A stretch of DNA of 32,000 bases, taken from NCBI RefSeq assembly GCF_000023965.1, contig NC_013202.1, positions 2,790,001 to 2,822,000 of the forward strand. Direction: 5' to 3'. Below are positions 1,938-25,460 of the stretch, in pieces (positions within the stretch are counted from its first letter, which is position 1; every line of letters begins with the position of its first letter). A program made the position numbers and the translations under genes. This DNA is from Halomicrobium mukohataei DSM 12286. GTDB lineage: Archaea; Halobacteriota; Halobacteria; Halobacteriales; Haloarculaceae. Under the pieces are notes generated by a model. The model was not told the DNA's origin, made no database searches, and saw nothing but the letters and a program-made list of their open reading frames with translations.

Positions 1938-2044
1938 ACACCGATGTTGCGAGCCTCGGTGCTTCATACTACCGGCTGTAAATCTGTGAACGATTTCGCG
2001 ACCTCGTGGTCGCGAATATCTTGAAACAGTGACAGTCGGCAGTC

Positions 2045-3034: not shown

Positions 3035-3044
3035 TGTATATATG
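3035..3044 (+). promoter_or_regulatory. candidate TATA box for fba
   Basis: tgtatatatg lies about 27 nt upstream of ATG 3068, in an AT-rich divergent intergenic region (2906-3067). Confidence 0.45.
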
Positions 3045-3067
3045 CCCTGCTCGTGAATCGACTGGTG

Positions 3068-3856
3068 ATGCGTCCCATCGACGCGACTCCGCTTACGCGC
3101 GACGGCAACGTACTGATCCTGGCATACGATCACGGGCTCGAACACGGCCCAGTCGACTTTGCCGGCCGCCCCGAGAGTGCCGATCCCGAGTCGGTGTTTC
3201 GGGCCGCAACGCACGACGCCGTCACGTCGCTGGCAGTGCAGAAGGGAGTCGGCGAGGCGTACTACCCGTCCTACGAGGACGACGTGACGCTGCTCGCGAA
3301 GCTCAACGGCACCTCGAACATGTGGATAGGCGAACCCGACTCGTCGGTCAACTGCTCGGTCGAGTACGCCGCGACCCAGCTGGAGGCCGACGCCGTCGGA
3401 TTCACGATCTATCCCGGCTCGAACAACGAGGTCGAGATGGTCGAGGAGTTCCGCGAGATCCAGGAGGAAGCTCGCGAGTACGACATGCCCGTCGTCCTGT
3501 GGTCCTACCCGCGCGGACAGGGACTCAAAAACGACACGAAGGAAGACATCATCGCATACGCCGCCCGGCTCGGACTGGAACTGGGCGCGGACGTGACGAA
3601 GGTGAAGTACCCCGGTAGCAAGGAGGGGATGGCCCACGCCGTCGAGATGGCCGGCAAGAGCAAGGTCGTGATGAGCGGCGGTTCGAAACGCTCCGACGAG
3701 GCGTTCCTCCAGAGCGTCCGCGCGGTCATGGACGCCGGCGGCGCGGGGCTCGCCGTCGGACGCAACGTCTGGCAACGAGAACAGCCCGAGCAGATCCTCG
3801 ACGCGCTCGAACGCGTCATCCACGACGGGCAATCCGTCGACGCAGCACTTCAATGA
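3068..3856 (+). CDS. fba: class I fructose-bisphosphate aldolase (archaeal DhnA/FbaB type)
   Basis: LILAYDHGLEHGP, KLNG.S, VGFTIYPGS and DVTKVKYPG (Schiff-base Lys context) are typical of archaeal class I aldolases. It is directly coupled to fbp. ATG 3068 is preferred over GTG 3053 because of the TATA spacing. Confidence 0.8.
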   Translation: MRPIDATPLTRDGNVLILAYDHGLEHGPVDFAGRPESADPESVFRAATHDAVTSLAVQKGVGEAYYPSYEDDVTLLAKLNGTSNMWIGEPDSSVNCSVEYAATQLEADAVGFTIYPGSNNEVEMVEEFREIQEEAREYDMPVVLWSYPRGQGLKNDTKEDIIAYAARLGLELGADVTKVKYPGSKEGMAHAVEMAGKSKVVMSGGSKRSDEAFLQSVRAVMDAGGAGLAVGRNVWQREQPEQILDALERVIHDGQSVDAALQ

Positions 3857-4737
3857 GTAAATCAACCGACCTCACCCCGGGTATGACCGACACGACGACC
3901 GGGCGCATCGTCGGCGAGTTCGCCGACGCCGCGACCGAAATCCGCGAGGCGATCGCGACGGAGCGCCAGTTCGCCGACGAGGAGAACCCGAGCGGCGAGA
4001 GCCAGCTCGCTGCCGACCTGGTCGCCGACGAACTGCTCGAAGAGCGCCTCCTGGCACTCGACGGCGTCGGGAGCTACGCCAGCGAGGAACGCGAGTCAGT
4101 CACCGTCGACGAGGGCCACCGCCACGTCGCCGTCGACCCGCTCGACGGCTCCTCGAACCTCGAACCAAACAGCGGCATGGGGACGATCTTCGGCGTCTAC
4201 GACACGCAGCCGCCGACGATCGGCCGGAACCTCGTGGCCGCCGGCTTCGTCATCTACGGCCCGACGACCTCGATGGTCGTGGCGCGCAACGACCGCGTCC
4301 GCGAGTACATCATCCACGACGGGGACGCTCGCGTCGTCGACGACGACGTGTCGGTCCCGACGGACCCGACAGTTTATGGCTTCGGGGGCGGTCGGGAGAA
4401 CTGGAACGACGCGTTCGCCGACTACGCGACGGAGCTCCAGGAACGGCTCAAGCTCCGCTACGGCGGCGCGATGATCGCCGACGTGAGCCAGGTCCTCACC
4501 TACGGAGGGCTCTTCTCCTACCCCGCACTGGAGTACCGGCCGACGGGGAAACTGCGCCTCCAGTTCGAAGGGCAGCCGATGGGCTACATCGTGGAGGCCG
4601 CTGGCGGCAAGTCATCGGACGGACACCAGTCGCTCCTGGATCGGGAGATCGACGACATCCACGACCGAACGCCGCTGCACCTCGGCAACACGTCGCTGAT
4701 CGAGCGCCTCGAAGAGCGATACGAACGCCACGAGTAG
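3853..4737 (+). CDS. fbp: fructose-1,6-bisphosphatase, class 1
   Basis: Contains VAVDPLDGSSNLE.N (FBPase metal-binding motif), LRY.G.M.AD and GGLFSYP. The start overlaps the fba stop in an ATGA arrangement (3853-3856). Confidence 0.9.
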   Translation: MSKSTDLTPGMTDTTTGRIVGEFADAATEIREAIATERQFADEENPSGESQLAADLVADELLEERLLALDGVGSYASEERESVTVDEGHRHVAVDPLDGSSNLEPNSGMGTIFGVYDTQPPTIGRNLVAAGFVIYGPTTSMVVARNDRVREYIIHDGDARVVDDDVSVPTDPTVYGFGGGRENWNDAFADYATELQERLKLRYGGAMIADVSQVLTYGGLFSYPALEYRPTGKLRLQFEGQPMGYIVEAAGGKSSDGHQSLLDREIDDIHDRTPLHLGNTSLIERLEERYERHE

Positions 4738-4855
4738 TCTGCGGAAATCGACGCTGGTTTTGCGGATCTCGGAACGGTCCAGAGGCGTCACTTGCCACGC
4801 CGACGGGGTCGGACTCGCCGGCAGTCTTGTAACAGTGCGGTGTGATGCGACAGAC

Positions 4856-6616
4856 ATGAAGGTGCGCATCGCCGCCGGTGCAACCCACGAAGAGGCGTCA
4901 GCAATTGCCGCTGCCATCGCCGAACACGTCGGCGAGGCCGTCCGCGTCTTCGTCGGTGACGACGAAGAGCCACGCGTGGTCCATCGGGTCGACGAGTCGG
5001 GCGACGACAGCGGGGACGACGAGACGGCCGACGACGACCTCGGCCCGACCGACCGCGAGCGTCGCCTGCGCGAGGAGATCGCCGACATCGAGGCCGGCGG
5101 TCCGGAGCGATACCGCGAGCGCCTCTCCGACCAGGGGAAGCTGTTCGTTCGGGACCGACTGGAGCTGTGGTTCGGCGATCTGACCTTCGAAGACGGCAAG
5201 TTCGCGAACTTCGACAGCTGGTCGCCGGATTCTCCCACCGTCGACGAGGCAGATCCCGACCGGCGACTGCCGGCCGACGGGCTGTTGACCGGAGCGGCGG
5301 AGTTCGAGGACCGCTCGGTTCACTTCATGGCCAACGACTTCACCGTCAAGGCCGGGTCGATGGCAGAGCGCGGGGTCGAGAAGTTCCTCCGGATGCAACA
5401 GCGTGCGCTGACGACCGGACGGCCGGTGTTGTACCTGATGGACTCGTCCGGGGGTCGAATCGACCAACAGCGGGGCTTTTTCGCCAACCGCGAGGGGATC
5501 GGGAAGTACTACTACAACCACTCGATGCTCTCCGGTCGCGTCCCACAGATCTGCGTGCTGTACGGCCCCTGTATCGCTGGCGCGGCCTACACGCCCGTGT
5601 TCGCCGACTTCACGGTCATGGTCGAAGGGATGAGTGCGATGGCCATCGCCAGCCCCCGAATGGTGGAGATGGTGACCGGCGAGGAGATCGATCTCGACGA
5701 ACTCGGCGGCCCGGACGTCCACGCACGCCACTCCGGGAGCGCCGATCTCGTCGCCGAAGACGAAGAACACGCTCGGGACCTCGTCGCACAGCTGATCGGC
5801 TACCTGCCGGACAACGCCGACGAAGACCCGCCACGGACCGACGGCCACGAGCCCGCCAAGTCCCCAGCGGGGATCGACGGCGTCATTCCGCAGGCACCCA
5901 ACCGGGGCTACGACGTGCGCCGCCTCGTCGAGCGGGTGATCGACGCCGACTCGTTGCTGGAGTTGCGCCCTCGCTACGGCCAGGAGATGCTCACGGCGTT
6001 CGCCCGGATCGACGGCCGCCCCGTCGGGATCGTCGCCAACGACCCGAGCCAGCGGGCCGGCGCGATCTTCCCCGACGCCGCCCGGAAGGCCGCCGAGTTC
6101 GTCTGGACCTGTGACGCGTACAACGTCCCGCTGCTGTACCTCTGTGACACGCCGGGGTTCATGGCCGGCTCGCAGGTCGAGAAAGAGGGGATCCTCGAAG
6201 CGGGCAAGAAGCTCATCTACGCGACCTCCTCGGCGACGGTGCCCAAACAGTGTGTCATCACCCGGAAGGCCTACGGTGCTGGCATCTACGCGATGTCCGG
6301 GCCGGCCTACGACCCGGAAGCGACCCTCGCCTTGCCGTCGGGCGAGATCGCGATCATGGGACCGGAGGCCGCGATCAACGCCGTCTACGCCAACGAACTG
6401 GCCGACATCGAGGACGAGGAGGAACGCGCCAGACGGGAGGCGGAGCTTCGCGAGCAGTTCCGCGAGGACATCGACGTCCACCGGATGGCCAGCGAGGTCG
6501 TCATCGACGAGATCGTCCCGCCGAGCGATCTGCGGACGGAGCTTGCCGCCCGCTTCGCGTTCTACGAGGACGTGGAGAAGGACCTCCCCTCGAAGAAACA
6601 CGGGACCGTGCTGTGA
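4856..6616 (+). CDS. acyl-CoA carboxylase carboxyltransferase subunit (propionyl-CoA carboxylase beta / methylmalonyl-CoA carboxyltransferase family)
   Basis: 586 aa from ATG 4856. Carboxyl-transferase blocks: ANDFTVKAGSM, YLMDSSGGRIDQQ, CVLYGPCIAGAAYTPVF, PLLYLCDTPGFMAG, RKAYGAGIYAM. Carries an unusual N-terminal extension of about 90 aa. Confidence 0.9.
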   Translation: MKVRIAAGATHEEASAIAAAIAEHVGEAVRVFVGDDEEPRVVHRVDESGDDSGDDETADDDLGPTDRERRLREEIADIEAGGPERYRERLSDQGKLFVRDRLELWFGDLTFEDGKFANFDSWSPDSPTVDEADPDRRLPADGLLTGAAEFEDRSVHFMANDFTVKAGSMAERGVEKFLRMQQRALTTGRPVLYLMDSSGGRIDQQRGFFANREGIGKYYYNHSMLSGRVPQICVLYGPCIAGAAYTPVFADFTVMVEGMSAMAIASPRMVEMVTGEEIDLDELGGPDVHARHSGSADLVAEDEEHARDLVAQLIGYLPDNADEDPPRTDGHEPAKSPAGIDGVIPQAPNRGYDVRRLVERVIDADSLLELRPRYGQEMLTAFARIDGRPVGIVANDPSQRAGAIFPDAARKAAEFVWTCDAYNVPLLYLCDTPGFMAGSQVEKEGILEAGKKLIYATSSATVPKQCVITRKAYGAGIYAMSGPAYDPEATLALPSGEIAIMGPEAAINAVYANELADIEDEEERARREAELREQFREDIDVHRMASEVVIDEIVPPSDLRTELAARFAFYEDVEKDLPSKKHGTVL

Positions 6617-13495: not shown

Positions 13496-14707
13496 ATGAG
13501 TACGCAGGTACACGCAAATCTCACGGCAGAACAGGTAACGCAGATCTCCGAGGAGCTCGACGAGCCCGAGTGGCTGCTCGAAACACGTCTCGACGCGTAC
13601 GAGGCCCTCGACTCGCTGGACATGCCGGACGTGATCCGGACGCCGGGTCGAGACTGGACGAACCTCGACGCGCTCGACTACGAGACGCTCGTCGATCCCT
13701 TGGAGTGGGAACAGGAGAAAGACCGCGTCGACGCCGAGAGTGTCGACGTGCTCTCGTGGGCCGACGCGCTCGAACAGCACGGAGAGCTGATCGAAGCGCA
13801 GTTCGGCTCGATCGTCGACCCACAGCGGGACTACCTCACGGCACTCTCGACGGCGCTGTTTAGCGCCGGGACGGTCGTCTACGTCCCCGAGGGCGTCGAC
13901 GCCGAAGACGTGAAGATCCGGACGACGATGAACAGCCGATCGCTGTTCAACTACACGCTGGTCGTCGCCGAGGAGTCCTCGTCCGTGACGATCCTCGAAC
14001 GCCAGACCACCGGCACCAACGTCGACGGCGAGCAGTACTACTCCGGCGTCGTCGAAGTCGCCGCCGAGGAAAACAGCAGCGTCCAGTACGGCACGCTCCA
14101 GAACCTCGACGACGACAGCTACAACTTCCAGGTCAAGCGTGGCCACGCCGACACCTACGCCACGGTCGACTGGATCGAGGGCAACATCGGCTCTCGACTG
14201 ACCAAGTCCAACGTCGAGACGCGCCTGCTTGGCGACGCCTCGGAGTCCCAGATCGTCGGGGCCTTCTTCGGCCACGAGGACCAGCACTTCGACATCGCGT
14301 CCCGAGTCTGGCACGAGGCCGAACACACCACGGCCGACCTCGTCACCCGCGGCGTCCTCGACGACGCCGCCCGCTCGGTGTACGAGGGCGTCCAGGACGT
14401 TGGCCGCGAGGCGTGGGACACCAACTCCTACCAGCGGGAGAACACCCTGATGCTCTCAGACGAGAGCGAGGCCGACGCGTCGCCGAAGCTGATCATCAAC
14501 AACCACGACACAGAAGCCAGCCACTCGGCGACCGTCGGACAGGTCGACGAGGAGGACATGTTCTACATGACCTCTCGGAGTGTCGATCCCGAGAGCGCGG
14601 AGAACATGCTGGTGGAAGGCTTCTTCGTGCCCGTCTTCGAGGAGATCGCGGTCGACGAACTTCGCGACGATCTCGACGACCTCGTCGTCGAACGCCTCCG
14701 CGAGTAG
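13496..14707 (+). CDS. sufD: Fe-S cluster assembly protein SufD
   Basis: 403-aa SufB/D-family beta-helix paralog (HEAEHT.ADL.TRGVL, EASHSATVGQVDEE..FY..SR). Third gene of the suf cluster. Confidence 0.9.
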   Translation: MSTQVHANLTAEQVTQISEELDEPEWLLETRLDAYEALDSLDMPDVIRTPGRDWTNLDALDYETLVDPLEWEQEKDRVDAESVDVLSWADALEQHGELIEAQFGSIVDPQRDYLTALSTALFSAGTVVYVPEGVDAEDVKIRTTMNSRSLFNYTLVVAEESSSVTILERQTTGTNVDGEQYYSGVVEVAAEENSSVQYGTLQNLDDDSYNFQVKRGHADTYATVDWIEGNIGSRLTKSNVETRLLGDASESQIVGAFFGHEDQHFDIASRVWHEAEHTTADLVTRGVLDDAARSVYEGVQDVGREAWDTNSYQRENTLMLSDESEADASPKLIINNHDTEASHSATVGQVDEEDMFYMTSRSVDPESAENMLVEGFFVPVFEEIAVDELRDDLDDLVVERLRE

Positions 14708-14855: not shown

Positions 14856-14876
14856 TGATCGTCGTCCCCGTCTCTG

Positions 14877-14958
14877 ATACGGAAAGTTGTAGGTCTTTAC
14901 CAGATCGACCGCACGCCGTCGTGCGGTCGACTGGATAAACGCCTACAACCGTCCGTAT
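14877..14958. repeat. 82-bp imperfect palindrome, copy 1 (inverted relative to copies 2 and 3)
   Basis: atacggaaagttgtaggtctttaccagatcgaccgcacg-ccgt-cgtgcggtcgactggataaacgcctacaaccgtccgtat. Its reverse complement matches copy 2 at 78/82 positions by my hand alignment. Confidence 0.9.
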
Positions 14959-15003
14959 GAGGACTCCAACGGCGTCGTCGGAATCTGTGAGCGAGTGAGC
15001 CGC

Positions 15004-15087
15004 TATAGTAACAATTGAAACGATTTACACACCGATCGCACTGCCGTCGTGCGATCGAGTGTGCATTGATCTTCAATGGCTACTATA
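15004..15087. repeat. 84-bp diverged relative of the palindrome family
   Basis: tatagtaacaattgaaacgatttacacaccgatcgcac-tgccgtc-gtgcgatcgagtgtgcattgatcttcaatggctactata. It has about the same size, the same arm/loop architecture, and shared tttac, cgcac and ccgtcgtgcg segments. Confidence 0.6.
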
Positions 15088-15410
15088 TTACGAAACAGTG
15101 TGATCGTAGTTTGAACGACGTGACGATATTTCGCCAACGTAGACCCGAGTTTTCGTAACGATTTTGTGTGTGAAACGTGTGTGGTTGTGTGGCATCATTA
15201 CACAGGGATGTGCCGAGAAACGCACTCGGCGCTCCGGGGGGTGCCACGAGTGGCGATACGGATCGGCGTATCGGCGACCGATCTGGCACGACGGCTGGGG
15301 GCGCGAAGCTGGGACGGCCACCAGACGCCGTGTCGGTCGGTCGTGGTAGCACGACGCGGCGCTGGTCGGCTCTGGCCCGCGTTCGAACCGACGACACGAT
15401 CACACAACAC

Positions 15411-17282
15411 ATGAAAGAGACACGACGAAACTTCCTGCGAAACGCATCAGCACTCTCCGCGCTGGCGATCGGAGCCAGTGCGAGCGCATCGGCAGCAAAC
15501 TGTAGCGGCGTCGCCGAGTGGGACGCGAGCGCCACCTACACCGGCGGCGACCAGGTCACCTTCGACGGCTCGCTGTGGACCGCCGAGTGGTGGACACAGG
15601 GGACCGAACCCGCCGAGAGCGAGGCCGTCTGGACCCTGGAAGGGGCCTGTGGCGACGACGGCGACAGCGGCGACAGCGGCGGCGTCGACTGTAGCGGCGT
15701 CCAGTCGTGGGCGTCGGACGTTGCCTACTCAGGTGGCGACCAGGTCACCTTCGACGGCTCGCTGTGGACCGCCGAGTGGTGGACCAAGGGCACCGAACCC
15801 GCCGAGAGCGAGGCCGTCTGGACCCTGGAAGGGACCTGCGGTAGCGACGACGGCGACGAGAACACCGCGCCGACGGCGTCGTTCTCGGCCGACGTGAGCA
15901 CGCCCGAACCCGGTGATTCGATCTCCTTCGACGCGAGCGAGTCGAGCGATCCCGACGGCTCGATCGCCAGCTACGAGTGGGAGCTCGGTGACGGAACGAC
16001 GGCGACCGGAGAGACGGTGAGTCACAGCTACGAGTCGGCCGGCGACTACACCGTGACCCTGACGGTCACCGACGACGCCGGTGGGACGGCGACGGACTCG
16101 ACGACGATCTCGGTTTCGAGCGGCAACGCCGCGCCGGACGCCTCTTTCACCGTCTCCCCATCGAATCCGGCTCCCGACGAGTCGGTCACCTTCGACACGG
16201 CCGATTCGAGCGATTCCGACGGCACGATCGAGAGCTACGAGTGGGACCTGGGCGATGGGACGACGGCGACCGGAGAAACGGTCACCCACAGCTACGAGTC
16301 GGCCGGCGACTACACCGTATCGCTGACCGTCACCGACGACGCGGGCGCGAGCGACACCAACGAGACGGTCGTCTCGGTCGGCGACAGCTCCGGTGGCACC
16401 GAAGGAACGACCGAGTTCGCGCCGTACAACTACGTATTCACCGATCCCGAGACGACGCTGGTCGATCACGCAGAGCAGGCGGGCAACGACAGCGTCACCA
16501 CCGCGTTCGTCCTCTCGGACGGAAACGGCAACGCCGCGTGGGGCGGTGAGGCCGACCAGCTCGTCGGCGAGGCCGGTCTCCAGTCGGAGTTCCAGGCATA
16601 TCAGGACCAGGGCGGCACGATCATCATCTCCTTTGGCGGTGCAGTCGGGACGATGATCGCCCAGGACACGACTGACATCGACAAGATCAAATCGGAGTAC
16701 CAGTCCGTGATCGACACGTACGGCGTCACGCACCTGGACTTCGACATCGAGTCCGTAGACGAGGCCGCCGTCGACCGACGCAATCAGGCACTGGCCGAAC
16801 TCCAGTCCGAGAACCCGGACCTGAAAGTGTCGTACACGCTACGCTGTCGGACGACCGGTCTGACCGAGCACGGCACGTACGTCGTCGAGAACGCTCGCGA
16901 CAACGGCGTCGACGTGCAGTACGTCAACGTGATGACGATGAACTACGGCTGGGTCCGTCCGAGTGCGAGCACCGTCAAAGACACCGCGAACGGCACCCAC
17001 GAGGATCTGCTGTCGATCTTCTCGGACCTCTCCTCGGACGAGGCCTGGAGTATGGTCGGCATCACGCCGATGATCGGAGAGAACAACGTCGGCGGCCAGC
17101 ACCGGCCCGAGGACGCCGAGGAAGTCGTCTCCTTCGTCGAGGACAAGGGGATCGGTCTCGTCTCGTTCTGGTCGCTGGATCGAGACAACGGCGACTGTCC
17201 CGACGGGACCGTCTCGGGCAAGTGCAGTGGCATCGAACAGAGCGCCTACGAGTTCGCAGGCATCTACAACCAGGTTCAGTGA
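15411..17282 (+). CDS. secreted modular GH18 chitinase 1 (Tat signal - 2x CBM5/12 - 2x PKD - GH18, hevamine/PF-ChiA-like catalytic type)
   Basis: Start at MKETRRNFLRNASALSALAIGASA (twin-arginine signal). Two Cys-bracketed chitin-binding repeats (YTGGDQVTFDGSLWTAEWWTQG). Two PKD repeats (SFDASESSDPDGSIASYEWELGDG...YTVTLTVTDD). Catalytic THLDFDIE (DxDxE, nt 16731-16751), ISFGG and MTMNYG. Confidence 0.92.
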   Translation: MKETRRNFLRNASALSALAIGASASASAANCSGVAEWDASATYTGGDQVTFDGSLWTAEWWTQGTEPAESEAVWTLEGACGDDGDSGDSGGVDCSGVQSWASDVAYSGGDQVTFDGSLWTAEWWTKGTEPAESEAVWTLEGTCGSDDGDENTAPTASFSADVSTPEPGDSISFDASESSDPDGSIASYEWELGDGTTATGETVSHSYESAGDYTVTLTVTDDAGGTATDSTTISVSSGNAAPDASFTVSPSNPAPDESVTFDTADSSDSDGTIESYEWDLGDGTTATGETVTHSYESAGDYTVSLTVTDDAGASDTNETVVSVGDSSGGTEGTTEFAPYNYVFTDPETTLVDHAEQAGNDSVTTAFVLSDGNGNAAWGGEADQLVGEAGLQSEFQAYQDQGGTIIISFGGAVGTMIAQDTTDIDKIKSEYQSVIDTYGVTHLDFDIESVDEAAVDRRNQALAELQSENPDLKVSYTLRCRTTGLTEHGTYVVENARDNGVDVQYVNVMTMNYGWVRPSASTVKDTANGTHEDLLSIFSDLSSDEAWSMVGITPMIGENNVGGQHRPEDAEEVVSFVEDKGIGLVSFWSLDRDNGDCPDGTVSGKCSGIEQSAYEFAGIYNQVQ

Positions 17283-17328
17283 CGGCGACGAGGGTCGACC
17301 GCGAGGCCGTCACGAGACCACGACGCCG

Positions 17329-17334
17329 TTTTTT
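17329..17334 (+). terminator. oligo-T (T6) archaeal-type terminator after chitinase 1
   Basis: cgccgttttttcgcc lies 47 nt after the stop codon. A weak 6-bp-stem hairpin sits at 17281-17311. Confidence 0.45.
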
Positions 17335-17830
17335 CGCCGCCGATCCGTGCCACGACGGCGACAGTGGCAACCAGGGCACATATCGTTGGCCGTAACTTCG
17401 TGCAGAGATACGCCGCCCGGGGCGGCGAAACCGATTACGTATTTACGGCCGACAGTACCGCTCCGTATCTGACCGCACGACGACGGTGCGAACGGGTGTG
17501 AATCGGTTCGGTCGGTACGGTGGTCGTACGAACGAGCTGTCGCGAGCGACGAAGTCGGTCGGTTCACGCCACGAAACAGCGTTTAGGCTCCGGTAGAGTG
17601 CTTGAAAGGACCCTCTCCGAACCATGGTATAGAAAGACACACAACCGGCCCCACCAGTGCGTTTTTCCTGGGCGAACAATCGTGTAAGACTTCGGCAACG
17701 ACTCGGCACCGGCGTGGAGAGTAGATTGTACGCACGGGCCCTGATAGACCGACGAACGCGACGAGAAGAGTGTTGACAACTGCAGTAGTGGGTGAAAGTG
17801 TCACACACCACGTGTTAGTCGGAGGAGAGA

Positions 17831-17922
17831 TCATTTATCATTATAAAATGACGCAGCTATTCGAATGATTGTGGACCACTGTTCCATGTATGGAAATATT
17901 AATTTTCGGAATTTTTTAGTGT
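17831..17922 (+). promoter_or_regulatory. AT-rich island (about 30% GC), candidate promoter/regulatory region of chitinase 2
   Basis: I count 28 G+C in 92 nt. TATA-like strings are present: tttatcattataaaat, aaatattaatttt and attttttag. It lies 140-230 nt upstream of ATG 18060. Confidence 0.35.
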
Positions 17923-18059
17923 ATGGAGGTGCGTGGTACCCACAGCGGCTGGGTGAGAGAACGTTGGGTGCGGATTGGGGACTAGAACGTCGTCCCGGCA
18001 GTGGGGCGGACAGATCCAACGGTGGCACGCCAACGGTCGACACCGCCGCGACAATAACC

Positions 18060-20033
18060 ATGCAACGTCGCAACTATCTACAATCGCTTTCGGCGCTGGC
18101 CGGTCTGGCCGGCGTCTCCGCGGTAACAGCACAGGAAGAGTATCCGGCGTACGATTCGAGCGCGACCTACAACGGTGGCGATCGAGTCGTCTACGAGGGA
18201 TACATCTGGGAAGCACAGTGGTGGACCAAAGGAACGGCACCGAGCGCAGACAAGGCTGTCTGGGAGAAAGTCGGACCCGCTGACGGAGGCGGCGGGGACG
18301 ACGGCGGCTCCGACGACGGCGGCAGCAGCGACATTCCTGCCTACGATTCGAGCGCCACCTACACCGGTGGCGACCAGGTCACCTACGACGGGTTCGTCTG
18401 GGAGGCCGAGTGGTGGACCAAGGGTACCGAACCCTCCGAGAGCGCGAACGTCTGGACGAAGGTCCGCGCCGTCGACGACGGCGACAACGGCGGCGACGAC
18501 GGTGGATCCTCCGACCTCAACGCCGTCATCGACGCCAGCGCGACGCGCGTCGACGTCGGTGAGGACGTCACGCTGGACGCCAGCGGCTCCGAGGGCGACA
18601 TCGAGTCCTACGAGTGGATGGTCGGCGACCAGGGTCCGATCTCCGGCGTCGAGAACACGGTCACGCTCGACGAGGAAGGCACCTACGAGGTCACGCTGAC
18701 CGTCACCGACGCAGACGGCAACGAGGCGACCGCGACCCGATCCGTGTTCGTCGGCACCGCGGGCGGCACGCAGCCCGGCGACAAGCGAGTCGTCGCCTAC
18801 TACCGACAGTGGGCACAGTACGACCGCGAGTACACCCCGTCCGACATGCCCCTGGACAACATCACGCACGTCCAGTACGCGTTCGCGCGCCCGGAGGAGG
18901 ACGGCTCCGTCAACCTCGTCGGCGACAGTCACGGCCAGCAGGCGTTCTGGGACCAGAACACCGACTGGCGTGACGCACCCGGCGGAAAGAGCATCGCCGA
19001 GCTCGCAGAAGAGAACGAAGACACCAAGTTCACGCTCTCGATCGGTGGCTGGGGCGACTCCGAGTACTTCTCGTACGCCGCAGAAACCGAGGAGAACCGC
19101 CAGCGCTTCGCCGACCAGTGTGCCGAGTGGGTCGACCGAGGCAACCTCGACGGCATCGACATCGACTGGGAGTTCCCCCACGGCGGGGGCTGTCAGGGCG
19201 ACGGCGGCGAGGCGTGTAACAAGGAGAACGTCGAACGTCCCGAAATCGACATTCCGAACTTCACGAAGCTGTGTCAGGCGGTCCGCGATCGCCTCGACGA
19301 GAAGGCGGCAGAGGAAGGTCGCGAAGAGCCCTACGAGGTCACCGCTGCGGTCAACGCGGACCCCGAGGCGATGGCCGACTACGAGCACGAGGCCCTGTCG
19401 GACATCCTCGACTTCATCCTCGTGATGACCTTCGACTACGCGGGTATCTGGAGCGAGTACACCCGCCATCACGCCCCGCTCAAGGAGAACCCGGACAACC
19501 CGTTCGAGAAGTCCGACAGCTGGAACGCCTCCTACGCTCTCAGCTGGTTCGAACAGCAGGGCTGGTCGCCGGACCAGCTCAACATGGCCGTCCCGTTCTA
19601 CGGGCGTAGCTGGAGCAACGTCAACGACCCCGACGGCGAGGGCAACGGCGAGGACGACGGTCTCTTCCAGAAGTTCGACGGAGAGGACGGCAACGCCAGC
19701 GGCGACGGTAGCTTCGGTACTATCGGTGGTATCTACGAGTACTACGACCTCGCCGGTGGCTCCCGTGGCGGCTCCAGTATCATCGACGGCGACGACTACG
19801 AGACCTACATCGACGAGGACGCCATGACGGCCTACAGCTACAACCCCGACAAGGGCGGTGGCTACAACAAGGCCAGCGGCGAGATGATCTCCCACGACAC
19901 CGTCGAGACCATGGAGATGAAAGCCCAGTGGCTCCGCGACTCGCCGTACGGCGGGACGATGCTGTGGGCCATCGGTGGCGACACGAAGGACGGCGAACTG
20001 ATCAGCACGCTCTGGAACACGCTCAACGAATAG
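18060..20033 (+). CDS. secreted modular GH18 chitinase 2 (Tat signal - 2x CBM5/12 - PKD - classical GH18)
   Basis: Start at MQRRNYLQSLSALAGLAGVSAVTAQ. Two CBM5/12 repeats without flanking Cys (YNGGDRVVYEGYIWEAQWWTKG). One PKD repeat. GH18 blocks YYRQWA, THVQYAF, LSIGGW, DGIDIDWEFP (nt 19149-19172), MTFDY and GGTMLWAIGGD. Confidence 0.93.
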   Translation: MQRRNYLQSLSALAGLAGVSAVTAQEEYPAYDSSATYNGGDRVVYEGYIWEAQWWTKGTAPSADKAVWEKVGPADGGGGDDGGSDDGGSSDIPAYDSSATYTGGDQVTYDGFVWEAEWWTKGTEPSESANVWTKVRAVDDGDNGGDDGGSSDLNAVIDASATRVDVGEDVTLDASGSEGDIESYEWMVGDQGPISGVENTVTLDEEGTYEVTLTVTDADGNEATATRSVFVGTAGGTQPGDKRVVAYYRQWAQYDREYTPSDMPLDNITHVQYAFARPEEDGSVNLVGDSHGQQAFWDQNTDWRDAPGGKSIAELAEENEDTKFTLSIGGWGDSEYFSYAAETEENRQRFADQCAEWVDRGNLDGIDIDWEFPHGGGCQGDGGEACNKENVERPEIDIPNFTKLCQAVRDRLDEKAAEEGREEPYEVTAAVNADPEAMADYEHEALSDILDFILVMTFDYAGIWSEYTRHHAPLKENPDNPFEKSDSWNASYALSWFEQQGWSPDQLNMAVPFYGRSWSNVNDPDGEGNGEDDGLFQKFDGEDGNASGDGSFGTIGGIYEYYDLAGGSRGGSSIIDGDDYETYIDEDAMTAYSYNPDKGGGYNKASGEMISHDTVETMEMKAQWLRDSPYGGTMLWAIGGDTKDGELISTLWNTLNE

Positions 20034-20054
20034 CGTCCGTTCCAGCAGCGCCTC

Positions 20055-20136
20055 ATACGGAAAGTTGTAGGCGTTTACCCAGTCGACCGCACGACGGCGT
20101 GCGGTCGATCTGGTAAAGACATACAACTTTCCGTAT
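20055..20136. repeat. 82-bp imperfect palindrome, copy 2
   Basis: atacggaaagttgtaggcgtttacccagtcgaccgcacg-acgg-cgtgcggtcgatctggtaaagacatacaactttccgtat. It starts 21 nt after the chitinase 2 stop. Stems of 15 + 6 + 11 bp are separated by conserved mismatch blocks. Confidence 0.9.
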
Positions 20137-20299
20137 CACGGCCTGTGCGGTGGCGTGCAATTACGGGGGTAACTGACGTTCACCCGCGGGCCGCTTTGCG
20201 AACCGACGGCGAAGGGGGCGACAGCGTGACTCGATAGCCCCGCCGCCGTCACACGGACCGATCAAACACAGACGACGCAGCGAAATCACGACACTATCT

Positions 20300-22225
20300 A
20301 TGAGAGAAACACGACGCGACATGCTACAGAAGGCAACGGCCCTGTCGGCACTGGCAGTCGGAGCCAGTGCGACAGCAACAGCAGCAGACTGCAGTGGCGT
20401 CTCCGAGTGGGACGCGAGCGCCACCTACAACGGCGGCGATCAGGTCACCTACGACGGTGCGCTCTGGACCGCCGAGTGGTGGACCAGCGGCACTCAGCCG
20501 GCCGAGGACGCTTCGGTCTGGACCAAGGAGGGTGCCTGTGGTGACACTCCACCGGGCGACGGCGACGAAGGGACGGACTGCAGCGAAGTCTCCGCGTGGG
20601 AGTCCGACGTTGCCTACACCGGCGGCGACCAGGTCACCTACGACGACTCGCTGTGGACCGCCGAGTGGTGGACCAAGGGCACCGAACCCGCAGAGAGCGA
20701 GAACGTCTGGACCCTGGAGGGTCCCTGCGGTGACGGCGGCGGCGGTGGTGGCGGCGGTGGCGACGAGAACCAGTCGCCCGACGCCTCCTTTACCGTCTCG
20801 CCGTCTTCGCCCGAGCCGGATGAGGAAGTGACCCTCGACGCCAGCGGGTCCTCCGATCCCGACGGCGATTCCCTGAGCTACGAGTGGGAGATCGAGACCG
20901 TCGGCACCGTCGAGGGTGCGGAGAACTCGCTGACCTTCGACGAGGCCGGTGACTACGAGGTCACGCTGACCGTCACGGACGCCGAAGGCGCGTCCAGTTC
21001 GGTCACCGAGACCCTCAGCGTCGCCGAAGCACCCGATCCGCCGAGCGACGAGTTCAAAGTCATCGGTTACTACCCCGGCTGGAAGGCCACGCCGGAGTAC
21101 GACTACTACCCCGAGGACATCCCCTTCGACAAGGTCACGCACGTCCAGTACGCGTTCCTCGGCGTCGACGCGGACGAGGCAGTGCCGACGATCATGAGCG
21201 ACCAGGACCGCGAGAACCTCGAACGGTTCAAGGAGCTCAAGGACGGAGCGGCCTCCGACACCAAGATCACGCTCTCGATCGGTGGCTGGGCGGACTCGAC
21301 CGGCTTCTCCGAGATCGCCGCGACCGAGAGCAATCGACAGTCCTTCGCCGACCGGTGTGTCGAGATCCTCCGGAAGTACAACCTCGACGGCATCGACATC
21401 GACTGGGAACACCCAGGTAGCTCCCAGGGCAAGTGCCAGTGTGGGAGCAACGAGGACTACGAGACTCACGTCGACCTCCTGCAGGCGCTTCGAGACACGC
21501 TCGACGCGGCCGCCGAGGAAGACGGCAAGTACTACGAGCTGTCCGTCGCGAACGGTGGCTCGGACTGGAACGCCGGTGGCCTCCGCCACGGCGACATCGG
21601 CGAGATCTGTGACTTCGCCTCCATCATGGCCTACGACTTCACGGGCTCGTGGATGGACGTAGTCGGTCAGAACGCGCCGCTGTACGGCGACTCTCACCCC
21701 ACGGAGAACAGCCAGTACGGCGAGACCTACACCGCCCAGTACTTCGTCGAGTACTCGGTCGACAAGCTCTACGCTGGCGACCACGGCGAGACGGGCTACT
21801 GGCCCGGCCAGTGGGAGTACCCGCCGGCCGAGCCCGCAGAGTACGACGAACTGGTCCTCGGCCTGCCGTTCTACGGCCGCGGCTTCAACGGCACCGAGAT
21901 GTACGGCAACTACAGCGGCCTCCCGGAGGGCACGTGGCACGACCAGCTCGAAGACGGAGCCGACCCGACCGGCGCGTTCGACTTCGGTGACCTCGAAGAG
22001 AACATCGAGGGCGCGGACGGCTGGACGAAGAAGCGCCACGACCCCGGTGCGGTCCCCTACATCGTCAACGAAGACGAAGAGACGATCATCAGCTACGACG
22101 ACGAACAGGCCATCGAGGAGAAGGTCGAGTTCGCGAAGGAACGAGGCATGCAGGGCGTCATGTTCTGGGAACTCTCCCAGGACTGGAACCAGACGCTGCT
22201 CGACGCGATCAACCGGACCGCGTAG
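20300..22225 (+). CDS. secreted modular GH18 chitinase 3 (Tat signal - 2x CBM5/12 - PKD - classical GH18)
   Basis: MRETRRDMLQKATALSALAVGASA Tat signal. Two Cys-bracketed CBM5/12 repeats, a Gly9 linker and one PKD repeat. GH18 blocks GYYPGW, THVQYAF, LSIGGW, DGIDIDWEHP (nt 21386-21409), MAYDF and GVMFWELSQD. Confidence 0.93.
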   Translation: MRETRRDMLQKATALSALAVGASATATAADCSGVSEWDASATYNGGDQVTYDGALWTAEWWTSGTQPAEDASVWTKEGACGDTPPGDGDEGTDCSEVSAWESDVAYTGGDQVTYDDSLWTAEWWTKGTEPAESENVWTLEGPCGDGGGGGGGGGDENQSPDASFTVSPSSPEPDEEVTLDASGSSDPDGDSLSYEWEIETVGTVEGAENSLTFDEAGDYEVTLTVTDAEGASSSVTETLSVAEAPDPPSDEFKVIGYYPGWKATPEYDYYPEDIPFDKVTHVQYAFLGVDADEAVPTIMSDQDRENLERFKELKDGAASDTKITLSIGGWADSTGFSEIAATESNRQSFADRCVEILRKYNLDGIDIDWEHPGSSQGKCQCGSNEDYETHVDLLQALRDTLDAAAEEDGKYYELSVANGGSDWNAGGLRHGDIGEICDFASIMAYDFTGSWMDVVGQNAPLYGDSHPTENSQYGETYTAQYFVEYSVDKLYAGDHGETGYWPGQWEYPPAEPAEYDELVLGLPFYGRGFNGTEMYGNYSGLPEGTWHDQLEDGADPTGAFDFGDLEENIEGADGWTKKRHDPGAVPYIVNEDEETIISYDDEQAIEEKVEFAKERGMQGVMFWELSQDWNQTLLDAINRTA

Positions 22226-22241
22226 CGACAGTCGCCTCGCC

Positions 22242-22247
22242 TTTTTT
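22242..22247 (+). terminator. oligo-T (T6) archaeal-type terminator after chitinase 3
   Basis: ctcgccttttttcgac lies 17 nt after the stop codon. A small gcgac-a-gtcgc hairpin precedes it. Confidence 0.4.
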
Positions 22248-22294
22248 CGACGCGTTGCATCGATCGCAGACGACCGACTCAGATTATCACACCA

Positions 22295-23860
22295 ATGAAA
22301 CAGACACGACGGAACATTCTACGCAAAGCATCGGCACTGACAGCACTCGGCATCGGAGCCAGCGGCATCGCGGCTGGCGCAGACTGCAGTAGCGTCCCGG
22401 AGTGGGACGCCGACGCCACCTACACCGGCGGCGACCAGGTCACCTACGACGGTGCGCTCTGGACCGCCGAGTGGTGGACGCAGGACGAGCCGTCCGAGAG
22501 CGCCAACGTCTGGACGCGGGAGGGCGCTTGTGGCGGGAACGGCGGCGACGACGGCGACGACGGCGACGACAGTGACAGCGCGAACTGCGACGACTACCCC
22601 GAGTACGATTCGGGGGCGACCTACACCGGCGGCGACCGAGTGATCTACGACGGTCGGCTCTGGGAAGCCGAGTGGTGGACCAAGGGCACCGAACCCGCCG
22701 AGAGCCAGAACGTCTGGACGCTGGTCGGCACGTGTGGGAACTTCGCACCCACTGCGGTCGCCTCGGCCTCGCCCTACTCGCCGGAGGTCGGCGAGACGGT
22801 CACCTTCGACGGCTCCGACTCTTCCGATCAGGACGGTTCGGTCACGAGCTACGAGTGGAGCTTCGACGACGGTACCACCGAGACGGGCGAGACCGTCACC
22901 AGAAGCTACGACGCGAACGGCGAGTACACGGCGACGCTGACCGTCACCGACGACGCTGGCGCGACCGCCAGCGACTCCGTGAGCGTCGCGGTCGGCGACA
23001 CCAGTGGCGGCTCCGAGAAGGAAGACGACGTGTTCGCGCCCTACCAGGGCACGTGGGGAAGTCTCGTCGACGGGACGCTGAACGTCGACACCGATCGGGT
23101 CGTCGTTTCGTTCGTCGGCGACGCGACCGACGACGGCGAGATCAATCCCGGCTGGCTCACCTCCGGCGGCCAGCGTCCGCTCACCGACTACACCGACGAG
23201 ATTCAGACGCTCCAGGACAACGGTATCGAGGTCTGGGTCGCCATCGGTGGCTGGGACGGCCGCACCGTCGCGCGGGACGCGACCGACGCGACGGAGCTCA
23301 AGAACGTCTACGCCGACATCCTCGATACGCTCGGGGTCACCCACCTCGACATCGACGACGAGAACGCCAACGAGGCGGGCCGTGACGGCAGCGTCTACGA
23401 GATCCGCAACGAAGCGCTCGCGATGCTGCAAGACGAGCGCCCCGAGGTGAAGATCTCCTACACCGTCCCGGCAGGACAGGGCGGCATCGAGAACCGCGAC
23501 TATTCGCCCGCCAAGGACATGGTCAGCGATGCCGTCCAGCAGGGAATCGATCTGTCCTACGTCAACATCATGACTATGGGCTTCTCGGGCGATTACACCT
23601 CGATCATCCCCTCGGCCGGCCAGGGCACTGTCGACTGGCTGGCCAACGTCTACCCGGACAAATCCGAGCAGGAACGCTGGGAGATGCTGGGTGTGACGCC
23701 GAACGTCGGCGAGGACAACTTCACGACCGACGACGCCAGTGCCATCGTCGACTGGGCGGAAAACGAGGATCTCGGACTGCTGAGCTTCTGGGCGCTGTAC
23801 AAGTCCAGTGCTGCCGAACAGGCGGAGATCTTCGCCACGTTCGAGTCCGACGAGGACTGA
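22295..23860 (+). CDS. secreted modular GH18 chitinase 4 (Tat signal - 2x CBM5/12 - PKD - GH18, same catalytic type as chitinase 1)
   Basis: MKQTRRNILRKASALTALGIGASG Tat signal. Two CBM5/12 repeats and one PKD repeat. Catalytic THLDIDDE (DxDxE, nt 23342-23362), AIGGWDG, NIMTMGF and LLSFWAL. The layout parallels the chitinase 1 catalytic domain. Confidence 0.9.
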   Translation: MKQTRRNILRKASALTALGIGASGIAAGADCSSVPEWDADATYTGGDQVTYDGALWTAEWWTQDEPSESANVWTREGACGGNGGDDGDDGDDSDSANCDDYPEYDSGATYTGGDRVIYDGRLWEAEWWTKGTEPAESQNVWTLVGTCGNFAPTAVASASPYSPEVGETVTFDGSDSSDQDGSVTSYEWSFDDGTTETGETVTRSYDANGEYTATLTVTDDAGATASDSVSVAVGDTSGGSEKEDDVFAPYQGTWGSLVDGTLNVDTDRVVVSFVGDATDDGEINPGWLTSGGQRPLTDYTDEIQTLQDNGIEVWVAIGGWDGRTVARDATDATELKNVYADILDTLGVTHLDIDDENANEAGRDGSVYEIRNEALAMLQDERPEVKISYTVPAGQGGIENRDYSPAKDMVSDAVQQGIDLSYVNIMTMGFSGDYTSIIPSAGQGTVDWLANVYPDKSEQERWEMLGVTPNVGEDNFTTDDASAIVDWAENEDLGLLSFWALYKSSAAEQAEIFATFESDED

Positions 23861-23941
23861 TACGGACGGTTGTAGCCGTTTACCTAGTCGACCGCACGCC
23901 GTCGTGCGGTCGATCTGGTAAAGACCGACAACTTTCCGTAT
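23860..23941. repeat. 82-bp imperfect palindrome, copy 3
   Basis: atacggacggttgtagccgtttacctagtcgaccgcacg-ccgt-cgtgcggtcgatctggtaaagaccgacaactttccgtat. 74/82 identical to copy 2. Its first base is the last base of the chitinase 4 TGA stop. Confidence 0.9.
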
Positions 23942-24155
23942 GATGCGGACGTAGCCGCGCAAAGAGGATCGCAACCCAGCGGGGATCGCGAGATGGTGTC
24001 CAGACGAACAGGCAGTGCGAAGGGGTCGGCCCGGCGCAGCCGTTTTTAGCTGCTCGGGGCAACGGAGCGTGATCCGCGAGGGAACCGCTTAAGTCGTCGC
24101 CTCCCCGAGAAACGAGCATGACTGTACAGACGCGTGACCGACGGGGGCAGGTACC

Positions 24156-24635
24156 GTGAGCCTCCAGCGGCCAGTCGGCTCCGATCACCAGCTCGCACGG
24201 CTGCTCCAGATCGGCGTCGTCCTCGAAGAGGTCGTCGAGGCCCGCGCCGACAAGCACGCCAGCGTCTCGGCGGATCTCGATCCCGCGGTCGAGGCACTGC
24301 TTGACCACGCTGCCAGCGAGTCCGAAGACCATCGGCGAGCACTCGAAGAGCTGATCGGCGAACTGGAGGCAGAGACGGTGCCGTTCGACGAGATCCAGAC
24401 GCTCGTCGAGGCCCAGTACGAGAGCGACGACGAGTTCGACGGCATCCTCTACGATCAGCTGTGCAACGAGGAGACGGCGTACAAGTTCTACGACGACCTC
24501 ATCGGAGCGATCGAGGCCTCCGAGACCGAGTTCAGTATCGACCGAAATCGGCTCCTCTCGACGCTCGAACGCATCCGCGACGAGGAAGCAGACGGCGTCG
24601 AGGAAGTGACCGAACTCATGGAGGAACGCGAATGA
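24156..24635 (+). CDS. acidic helical hypothetical protein, possibly ferritin-like/rubrerythrin-superfamily
   Basis: 159-aa strongly acidic ORF with a GTG start and helical heptad-like composition (ESEDHRRALEELI, EETAYKFYDDLI). It sits directly upstream of a DtxR-type metalloregulator. The function is only a guess. Confidence 0.5.
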   Translation: MSLQRPVGSDHQLARLLQIGVVLEEVVEARADKHASVSADLDPAVEALLDHAASESEDHRRALEELIGELEAETVPFDEIQTLVEAQYESDDEFDGILYDQLCNEETAYKFYDDLIGAIEASETEFSIDRNRLLSTLERIRDEEADGVEEVTELMEERE

Positions 24636-24665
24636 GCGCCGCCGCGACACAACGGAGGGATCCAC

Positions 24666-25097
24666 GTGAACACCGCTAACCAGTATCTGAAAGCCATCTA
24701 CCTCGTCCAGGAACAGGAGGACGGCCCAGCATCGACCGGTGACGTGGCCGACATGCTCGAAGTCAGCCCGGCCAGTGCCAACGAGATGATCGGCAAGCTC
24801 GAAGACCAGGGCCTCCTCGAACACGAGAAGTACAAGGGCGTCGACCTCACGGACGAGGGGATCCACCGCGCACGCGAGGCGCTCCAGAACTACTGCATCA
24901 TCGAGCGGTTTCTCCTCGAAGTGCTCGAAGTCGAGGAGTTCCGCGGCGAGGCAAAGCAACTGGAGGGCGTCATCGACGAGACCGTCGCCGAGCGACTGGA
25001 CACGATCATCGATCGGGAACCGCAGTGTCCGGACTGTTTCGACGCCGAAGACGACGTGTGCGGGCTGATCGAGCTGGAAGCCGAGGCGTCCGACTAG
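24666..25097 (+). CDS. DtxR/MntR/SirR-family metal-dependent transcriptional repressor
   Basis: The N-terminus NQYLKAIYLV.E......TGDVA..L.VSPASANEMI.KLE..GL..HEKYKGV.LT.EG matches the DtxR wHTH. Followed by a dimerisation/metal-binding helix region and C-terminal CPDC. GTG start. Confidence 0.85.
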   Translation: MNTANQYLKAIYLVQEQEDGPASTGDVADMLEVSPASANEMIGKLEDQGLLEHEKYKGVDLTDEGIHRAREALQNYCIIERFLLEVLEVEEFRGEAKQLEGVIDETVAERLDTIIDREPQCPDCFDAEDDVCGLIELEAEASD

Positions 25098-25218: not shown

Positions 25219-25291
25219 AGTCCCGTGGTGTAGTGGCCAATCATATGGGCCTTTGGAGCCCATGACGGCGGTTCGAATCCGCCCGGGACTA
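25219..25291 (+). tRNA. tRNA-Gln (anticodon UUG)
   Basis: Hand-folded cloverleaf: acceptor AGTCCCG/CGGGACT, anticodon stem TGGGC/GCCCA with loop CTTTGGA (anticodon TTG), T arm GGCGG-TTCGAAT-CCGCC, discriminator A. CCA is not encoded. 73 nt. Confidence 0.9.
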
Positions 25292-25368
25292 TTCTGCGAC
25301 GAACGGACGTGAGGAGCGAATAGTCCTGCGGATTCGGGCCCAGAGGACGAGAGGATTCGAGTCCTCGT

Positions 25369-25389
25369 GGTTCGAATCCGCCCGGGACT
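25369..25389 (+). repeat. exact 21-nt copy of the tRNA-Gln 3' end (T-loop plus acceptor 3' strand)
   Basis: ggttcgaatccgcccgggact is identical to 25270-25290 and lies 99 nt downstream of it. Confidence 0.9.
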
Positions 25390-25439
25390 GTGCGAGAATC
25401 TCACATAGTTCGGACAGGCGAGAGAATTCGAGCCTTCGC

Positions 25440-25460
25440 GGTTCGAATCCGCCCGAGGCT
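25440..25460 (+). repeat. second, slightly diverged copy of the tRNA-Gln 3' end
   Basis: ggttcgaatccgcccgaggct matches 19/21. The preceding ~25 nt (gagagaattcgagccttcgc) is also homologous to the segment preceding copy 1 (gagaggattcgagtcctcgt). Confidence 0.85.

Follow-up and report, generated by a model that had tools for sequence, protein, structure and literature searches.

The chromosome of Halomicrobium mukohataei DSM 12286 carries a row of four GH18 chitinase genes that is bracketed, two genes at a time, by three near-identical palindromes. The stretch analysed here, hereafter the window, comprises 32,000 nt of contig NC_013202.1 (positions 2,790,001 to 2,822,000 of the forward strand), and the positions below refer to it. 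An earlier note on this DNA drew attention to the palindromes and left three explanations side by side: a mobile element, a transcript-stabilising hairpin or terminator, and a recombination site that mobilises the gene pairs. The locus raises the question of whether the palindromes organise the chitinase array or arrived in it on their own account. Comparison with related genomes indicates that they very probably inserted independently of one another and recently in evolutionary terms, as copies of a non-autonomous DNA transposon of 80 bp. This miniature inverted-repeat transposable element (MITE) is designated Pal-A. The bracketing of gene pairs was correctly located but is incidental in meaning. 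Pal-A lies around the chitinases because tolerated target sites are locally dense there, and not because it organises the array.

The palindromes occupy 14877–14958, 20055–20136, and 23860–23941, as first described, and the identities obtained by hand alignment were reproduced: the reverse complement of copy 1 matches copy 2 at 78/82 positions, and copy 3 matches copy 2 at 74/82. Read on the same strand, copies 1 and 2 agree at just 66/82 positions, and copy 1 is therefore inverted. Folding returned the expected architecture of an outer stem, internal loops, a 6-bp stem, an 11-bp inner stem, and a 4-nt loop. The inner stem, TCGACCGCACG-N4-CGTGCGGTCGA, is identical and free of mismatches in all three copies, and this stem with a 4-nt loop occurred in 0/100 shuffles of the window. 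Complementarity over the two 38-bp arms amounts to 76–79%, and the folding energies predicted for the three copies range from -48 to -55 kcal/mol on either strand, with z-scores between -8 and -10. Mutual identity among the window palindromes is 90–95%, which makes them far more alike than the paralogous coding repeats of the chitinase genes.

A polarity had also been assigned to each copy from two arm types, X and Y, and this assignment was upheld. A strand-oriented profile built from 102 copies of other genomes placed copy 1 on the plus strand and copies 2 and 3 on the minus strand, with E about 1e-23 on the assigned strand against 1e-16 on the opposite one, a gap of about six orders of magnitude. 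The Pal-A arms co-vary between a Halomicrobium and a Halosimplex subfamily, and the X/Y arm differences are conserved in both although the outer stems differ. This conservation suggests a constraint, either to keep left and right ends distinct or to avoid an 80-bp palindrome so perfect as to be unstable. In the terminal X/Y mismatch (AAA vs CGG), the two arms have been equalised in copy 2 and in some copies of Halomicrobium katesii (loci L059 and L060), giving a perfect 15-bp outer stem. Intra-palindrome conversion, with one arm corrected against the other, could produce this state.

The evidence for transposition lies first in the flanks. Among 105 Pal-A copies with clear ends, drawn from Haloarculaceae genomes, 102 are directly flanked by the same TSA trinucleotide (S, G or C) on both sides, as TCA/TCA in 54 cases and TGA/TGA in 48. 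The other three copies read TCA/TGA (the palindromic combination), TTA/TTA, and TTA/TCA. Because a palindrome merely extended outward would pair TGA at one end with TCA at the opposite end, the direct flanks represent a target-site duplication (TSD). The Pal-A unit runs from TACGG to CCGTA and measures exactly 80 bp in 89/105 copies. From the flank pattern, the mobile unit is therefore 80 bp long and duplicates 3 bp of the form T(G/C)A. Hence, the palindromes described as 82 bp stand, but their length does not: the outermost A and T belong to the 3-bp direct flanking repeat. Each window copy retains its own intact TSD (TGA, TCA, and TGA, respectively). When the duplication is oriented as TGA, C precedes it (-1) in 78% of copies and G follows it (+1) in 54%, a preference that persists for copies away from stop codons. 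The preferred target of Pal-A is C|TSA|G, a palindromic 5-bp motif.

The second line of evidence is abundance. A scan for the exact inner stem was run on one genome per species, and the Pal-A counts that follow come from its listed matches. It returned at least 129 exact-core copies at at least 120 loci, all in haloarchaea and nearly all in Haloarculaceae. Among the matches listed, at least 41 belong to H. katesii. The other hosts are several Halosimplex species, Halorarius, Halovenus, Halapricum, and one Halogeometricum genome, together with metagenome-assembled genomes (MAGs) of Haloarculaceae, Halococcaceae, and other Halobacteriales. The copies are dispersed singly beside unrelated genes in several genera and do not form cassette arrays. 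A count of further copies in the genomes of relatives had been proposed as a check on mobility, and the many copies found support it. The 36 full-length copies of H. katesii share a mean pairwise identity of 97.7%, with 15 of them identical, a degree of similarity that points to recent activity of Pal-A. Copy 1 of the window is 98.8% identical to the H. katesii consensus, and the window copies overall reach 94–99%. A search of the PLSDB plasmid collection for Pal-A gave two distant Haloarcula matches only. Pal-A is largely chromosomal and largely confined to Haloarculaceae.

Filled and empty sites provide the third line. The sister strain Halomicrobium sp. LC1Hm (CP044129.1) shares the synteny of sufBD, chi1 to chi4, a gene for a 159-aa protein, and a repressor gene, and its chi4 is 96% identical in amino-acid sequence. 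At site 1, LC1Hm reads CTGCGG where the window has CTGA|Pal-A|TGAGG. At site 2, it reads CTCCCGG where the window has C-TCA|Pal-A|TCA-CGG. Both sites are thus empty in LC1Hm. A third empty site corresponds to a copy of a second family, Pal-B, with CGC-TA-TTACG in LC1Hm and CGC-TA[TAGTAAC...CTACTA]TA-TTACG in the window. At site 3, LC1Hm holds a different palindrome of 78 bp, of a third type named Pal-C (L122, 11570–11647), on the same chi4 TGA stop and flanked by TGA/TGA. Either this stop was hit twice independently in the two strains, or one element replaced the other. A metagenome contig (chi4 81% identical) contains the four chitinases with spacers of 91, 25, and 3 nt and no element. Together, LC1Hm and the metagenome contig imply that the array is older than the elements, that the elements came separately, and that gene order is independent of them. 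A further pair of filled and empty states comes from nesting. Three H. katesii loci (L014, L045, and L060) have a Pal-A copy inserted into Pal-B at an internal TGA (...TAGTAACAAT-TGA-[TACGG...CCGTA]-TGA-AACGATTTAC...), and the uninterrupted Pal-B of the window, TAGTAACAATTGAAACGATTTAC, is the empty-site counterpart.

These comparisons bear directly on the proposal that the palindromes are recombination sites of the attC kind or the ends of a composite transposon. In that proposal, the 9-kb array would be made mobile by the inverted pair at its ends, and the copy between them would let two 2-gene cassettes shuffle. The geometry invites it, since the outer copies are mutually inverted and the third divides the array 2+2. 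Moreover, in a Halosimplex sp. MAG, sufBD lies directly beside a homologue of window 24174–25072 with no chitinases between. The proposed check was to compare strains for presence or absence of the two segments. LC1Hm, which lacks copies 1 and 2 and has another element at site 3, keeps the four genes, their order, and their chromosomal site, and the metagenome contig keeps the four-gene order with its short spacers and no element at all. Each copy having its own intact TSD, the lack of an integrase or transposase gene in the window, and the single dispersal of elements beside unrelated genes rather than in cassette arrays all speak against the proposal as well, which leaves it extremely improbable. 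A palindrome near chitinase genes could also be read as an operator at which a dimeric protein regulates chitin catabolism. However, 80 bp far exceeds any operator, more than 129 copies stand beside unrelated genes in several genera, and the palindromes are missing from the orthologous chitinase spacers of LC1Hm. The chance that an operator is involved is practically negligible.

The position of Pal-A relative to genes requires separate consideration. In the window, copy 1 lies 170 nt past the end of sufD and 453 nt ahead of the chi1 ATG (called gene starts), copy 2 lies 22 nt downstream of the chi2 TAG stop, and copy 3 follows the chi4 stop directly. Across the sampled loci, genes were called from open reading frame (ORF) length and the third-position G+C (GC3) coding signature. 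For 98 insertions at intergenic or stop-codon sites, the TSD is the TGA stop of a coding ORF in 55. Over intergenic and stop sites as a whole, the expected share would be 12% if any TSA were used and 30% if CTSAG were required. A stop-codon-targeting transposon was considered on this basis, as 56% against 12% or 30% looked strong. The excess dissolved when the comparison was restricted to the stop codon and the next 60 non-coding nt, where the observed stop share is 80% and the C|TSA|G model predicts 78%. Genes could be called to the left and right of 90 copies, and these flanking genes are convergent at 37, tandem at 46, and divergent at 7. A gene 3' end is present on at least one flank in 83/90 copies, and 58/129 end-flanks lie at a distance of 0–4 nt. 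The copies show no orientation bias with respect to the gene upstream (20 vs 30). We infer that the pile-up results from the target motif (C TGA G being abundant at GC-rich gene ends), from regeneration of the stop by the duplication, and from the loss of insertions in coding and promoter DNA.

The same distribution may be read functionally. In that reading, the hairpins are terminators or mRNA 3'-end stabilisers, comparable to REP sequences, whose function sets their placement, with a mobile origin being secondary or the element having been exapted. The predicted RNA hairpins are very stable on either strand, copies 2 and 3 stand 22 and 0 nt past the stops of chi2 and chi4, and the concentration at gene 3' ends described above agrees with such a role. 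One hairpin assayed in Haloferax volcanii ended 59% of transcripts although it had no U-tract (PMC7237163), and AGATC within the X arm corresponds to a weak termination motif of the same study. Against this stand the missing run of U or T after any copy, the unbiased orientation, the location of copy 1 in a 5' region, and the reproduction of the 3'-end and stop-codon bias by target motif and tolerance. In addition, LC1Hm has these genes but no element at sites 1 and 2, and the genes therefore do not need the hairpin. The window contains five terminator-like matches, none of which coincides with an element. An Rfam search of the window returned only tRNA-Gln at the gathering threshold and only a spurious mir-598 at E<=1, with no match to the palindromes. 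On balance, function as the cause of placement is possible but doubtful, and a terminator or 3'-hairpin effect is plausible only as a side effect. A strand-specific RNA function was also considered and rejected, as both strands fold equally well and orientations are split 20 vs 30.

The reading of Pal-A as a MITE thus draws on several features at once. The element is shorter than about 500 bp and non-coding, has terminal inverted repeats (TIRs) and a fixed-length TSD, exists as dispersed copies, and shows insertion polymorphism. Structurally, it consists of two 38-bp TIRs and a 4-nt loop, is almost wholly self-complementary, and has no coding capacity. Judging from the TSD and the target pattern, Pal-A would be mobilised in trans by a cut-and-paste transposase of the DDE type that cuts C|T(G/C)A|G with a stagger of 3 nt. 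Once the gaps are repaired, TGA or TCA would be present in duplicate, one copy at each end of the element. Copies landing in coding or promoter DNA would be lost, and the survivors would gather at gene 3' ends, about half of them exactly on TGA stops that the duplication regenerates. With each insertion, the 3' end of the transcript or the upstream region gains a hairpin of about -50 kcal/mol, which may alter termination or stability as a side effect.

Several observations weigh against this interpretation. Neither the sampled Haloarculaceae DNA (about 1 Mb) nor the inspected plasmid regions yielded an autonomous element with matching termini, and for that reason the enzyme class is drawn solely from the TSD and target pattern. 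In the sampled loci, terminal 16-mers (<=2 mismatches) outside known copies, TA-starting inverted 16-mers spaced 0.5–3.5 kb apart with matching TSA or TA flanks, and multi-copy ORFs as candidates for a parent insertion sequence (IS) all led only to separate MITE-copy pairs or orthologous genes. No DDE transposase gene occurs in two 40-kb plasmid regions around Pal-B copies; tnpB genes, in pNMAG02, were the only related genes seen there. The TA... termini of Pal-A are unlike the G-rich ends that characterise IS5 and Harbinger elements. Between families, conservation extends to the G+C-rich hairpin at the centre. This is unusual, as MITEs are normally conserved best at their termini, and it might mean that the hairpin is what the enzyme recognises; the core conservation of Pal-A is partly an ascertainment effect, as the core served as bait in the scan. 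The empty sites 1 and 2 of LC1Hm read TGC and TCC, not TGA and TCA, within a spacer that is likewise diverged, and are imperfect as pre-insertion sites. Finally, the gene calls behind the stop-codon statistics are crude.

In another explanation, Pal-A is an element of the PATE, IS200/IS605, or REPIN type, moved as single-stranded DNA by a Y1 transposase (TnpA or RAYT) or linked to TnpB. The element is dominated by its hairpin, the G+C-rich central stem-loop is shared by Pal-A, Pal-B, and Pal-C, and GTAG occurs in the arms of the Halomicrobium subfamily. Haloarchaea commonly carry IS1341/TnpB genes, and in the Natrialba plasmid pNMAG02 a tnpB gene is followed at about 200 nt by a Pal-B copy. 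Even so, the Halosimplex subfamily does not keep GTAG (it has TTGCAAG there), and the window contains no tnpA, tnpB, or RAYT gene. PATEs and IS605-type elements lack TIRs and target duplications (PMC3119063), whereas Pal-A has full-length TIRs and a 3-bp TSD. This explanation is accordingly very unlikely. The suggestion that the palindromes are a non-autonomous, palindrome-type mobile element proved right in kind, with multiple copies, a TSD, and strain-dependent presence. Its tentative affiliation to PATE, IS200/IS605, or IS1341 does not agree with a TSD in 102/105 copies and full TIRs.

Pal-A is accompanied by related elements. A gapless palindrome scanner missed Pal-B and Pal-C, which were both detected by profile and pattern searches. 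The Pal-B copy of the window lies between Pal-A copy 1 and chi1, and its TA duplication follows from the LC1Hm empty-site comparison. Pal-B matches were found at 207 places in 53 haloarchaeal plasmid records spanning more than 15 genera, with 75–95% identity, and are almost always unannotated ("none" or "hypothetical protein"). The flanks suggest a C|TA|G target. A TA duplication at C|TA|G would presumably fit the same enzyme type or one of the IS630/Tc1(-mariner) type. Pal-C is represented by 12 copies in the sampled loci, 10 of which have a direct TSA duplication. Its window copy begins with TACTACCGGCTGT and fills the spacer between a minus-strand 3-hydroxyacyl-CoA dehydrogenase gene, whose TGA stop is the right TSD, and an acyl-CoA dehydrogenase gene, whose ATG lies 26 nt beyond the element. 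A mechanical ORF at 768–2960 on the minus strand runs through this copy and is spuriously long.

The families appear to be connected. The Pal-B profile matches Pal-A copies at E ~1e-4, and the Pal-A profile matches Pal-B at E = 0.002. All families have TA-starting ends (TACGG, TAGTA, TACTG, TAGTG, TAATG), A+T-richer arms, and a G+C-rich central stem-loop. On these grounds of sequence, Pal-A, Pal-B, and Pal-C are probably members of a wider superfamily of ~80-bp hairpin MITEs in Halobacteria. The window totals five elements of three families in 32 kb, and the three Pal-A copies near the chitinases therefore reflect a high local element density rather than a designed bracket. A more far-reaching conception holds that this Halobacteria-wide superfamily has no IS parent at all, in the manner of the small mobile repeats (SMRs) of Haloquadratum. 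A host-encoded or unrecognised enzyme would read the central G+C hairpin, the same stops would be hit repeatedly, as the chi4 TGA was by two family members in two strains, and haloarchaeal genes would possess a mobile and exchangeable 3'-end or terminator module. We consider this unlikely.

Two side observations concern Pal-B. The inspected copies in two plasmids of different genera, Natrialba magadii pNMAG02 (L125, 20002–20085) and a Halomicrobium mukohataei plasmid (L126, 20001–20091), lie just downstream of an AbrB/PIN toxin-antitoxin pair of the VapBC type. A longer variant of about 124–126 nt, with extra sequence in the central stem-loop, occurs in pNMAG02 (L125, 7286–7409) and in matches H22 and H33 of a Natronococcus sp. 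CG52 plasmid.

Comparison with known systems places Pal-A among the MITEs. Prokaryotic examples include the Correia/NEMIS elements of Neisseria, Chunjie of Geobacter, HqIRS35-39 of Haloquadratum, and MITEHsal of Halobacterium. Like these, Pal-A is small, non-coding, multicopy, and strain-variable, has TIRs and a TSD, inserts mostly between genes, nests in other mobile elements, and forms a strong transcript hairpin. In contrast to them, Pal-A is among the shortest (80 bp), palindromic over its whole length, and devoid of internal unique sequence. The haloarchaeal MITEs of the literature consulted are 118–520 bp long and have TSDs of 6–10 bp, whereas Pal-A generates a 3-bp TSA duplication at C|TSA|G.

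The closest counterparts in size are the SMRs of Haloquadratum walsbyi, of which HqIRS41 is 79–80 bp and HqIRS42/43/55 are about 110 bp. They exist in tens of copies without a matching transposon, reportedly leave no target duplication and favour the hairpins of PATE/IS605 elements, and have a mobilisation described as "enigmatic" (PMC3119063). SMRs resemble Pal-A in their haloarchaeal host range, length of 80–110 bp, prominent inverted repeats, copy number in the tens, and insertion into other mobile elements, and the sampled loci gave no parent element for Pal-A either. Compared by description rather than by sequence, they differ from the Pal families in their reported lack of a TSD, which is TSA in Pal-A and Pal-C and TA in Pal-B. 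"Switch repeats", in which different elements occupy an identical position in two strains, have been reported in Haloquadratum (PMC3119063) and resemble the occupation of the chi4 stop codon by Pal-A in one strain and Pal-C in the other.

In target pattern, the closest documented match is with the eukaryotic PHIS/NuwaII elements, relatives of bacterial IS5, which insert at C|TNA|G with a TNA TSD; PIF/Harbinger elements have a TWA TSD (PMC4482050). The C|TSA|G target and TSA duplication of Pal-A and Pal-C agree with this pattern of the PHIS superfamily, which comprises PIF/Harbinger and NuwaII elements together with their Tourist-like MITEs. Unlike IS5 and Harbinger, Pal-A has termini starting with TA, and the sampled loci yielded no PHIS/IS5-type transposase with matching ends.

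Palindromic repeats of other kinds are less similar. REPs are 20–40-bp units with a conserved GTAG/CGTC tag, and to our knowledge, they make no TSD and are bacterial. REP, BIME, and REPIN sequences share with Pal-A a dispersed extragenic location at gene 3' ends and proposed roles in termination or mRNA stability, and REPINs are hairpins of about 100 nt formed by two inverted units. Pal-A departs from them in its TSD and in a tag that is not conserved (GTAG is found in the Halomicrobium subfamily only). Integron attC sites are imperfect palindromes at cassette 3' ends, arrayed beside intI and conserved in structure rather than in sequence. Pal-A, unlike attC, is 94–100% conserved in sequence and dispersed through the genome, with no integrase in the window and the same gene order where it is absent. 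PATEs are elements of about 400 bp with subterminal hairpins and without TIRs or a TSD (PMC3119063). They are haloarchaeal, non-coding, and palindrome-containing like Pal-A, which differs in its TIRs, TSD, and length of 80 bp.

The MITE is a well-known kind of element. A literature search, with ISfinder and HaloLex outside its scope, returned no paper with the Pal core or terminal sequences and none on C|TSA|G-targeting 80-bp hairpin MITEs in Haloarculaceae, its yield being limited to general comparators. The analysis removes a tempting but wrong reading of the chitinase palindromes as cassette boundaries or regulators and gives three MITE families a checkable definition by ends, TSD, and target motif. 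Such elements are abundant: the 32-kb window has five, H. katesii has dozens, and more than 15 genera have Pal-B in their plasmids. Spurious ORFs are lengthened by them, and stop codons, operon spacers, and regions upstream of genes acquire hairpins of about -50 kcal/mol. The elements are also good markers of recent strain divergence. Their relevance extends to genome annotation, to the mapping of haloarchaeal 3' untranslated regions and terminators, and to the question of what mobilises very small haloarchaeal repeats. The interest will be moderate for specialists in mobile DNA and haloarchaeal genomics and low otherwise.

Table 1. Positions of the Pal elements and of the sufD and chitinase genes in the window.
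Feature	Position	Strand	Remarks
Pal-A copy 1	14878..14957	+	80 bp, X-loop-Y on + strand; TSD TGA at 14875-14877 and 14958-14960
Pal-A copy 2	20056..20135	-	80 bp, Y-loop-X on + strand; TSD TCA at 20053-20055 and 20136-20138
Pal-A copy 3	23861..23940	-	80 bp, Y-loop-X on + strand; TSD TGA at 23858-23860 and 23941-23943
Pal-B	15004..15087		element 15006-15085, TAGTAAC...GCTACTA; TA/TA duplication
Pal-C	1967..2044		78 bp; TSD TCA at 1964-1966 and 2045-2047
sufD	13496..14707	+	conserved left neighbour of the chitinase array
chitinase 1 (chi1)	15411..17282	+	CBM5/12 + PKD + GH18; called start 15411
chitinase 2 (chi2)	18060..20033	+	GH18
chitinase 3 (chi3)	20321..22225	+	GH18
chitinase 4 (chi4)	22295..23860	+	GH18; TGA stop is the left TSD of Pal-A copy 3

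The neighbourhood of the elements is summarised in Table 1. Gene order runs from sufC, sufB, and sufD through the four GH18 chitinases, with their CBM5/12 and PKD domains, to the gene for the 159-aa protein, an iron-dependent repressor gene, and tRNA-Gln. No transposase, integrase, tnpA, tnpB, or RAYT gene is present anywhere in the window. In the Halosimplex sp. MAG mentioned above (L075, ~2177–5398), sufB/sufD is separated by about 600 bp from the homologue of window 24174–25072, which shows that the block of four chitinase genes was inserted here in the chromosome in particular lineages only. Direct repeats with periods of 189–264 nt and 60–80% identity extend over 15400–22800, within and between the four chitinase genes, and correspond to duplicated CBM5/12 and PKD domains.

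The spacer between chi1 and chi2 contains a weak palindrome at 17385–17453 (34-nt arms, 71% complementary) and a core-like GACCGCACG...GGTGCGAAC motif at ~17471–17500, which together may be a decayed element. An A+T-rich stretch at ~17830–17920 lies ahead of chi2. Downstream of the array, the 3' half of tRNA-Gln (25219–25291) recurs beyond the gene in two partial copies, ...GGTTCGAATCCGCCCGGGACT at ~25343–25390 and ...GGTTCGAATCCGCCCGAGGCT at ~25421–25460. Both are also conserved in LC1Hm, and they look like leftover att sites of integrative elements.

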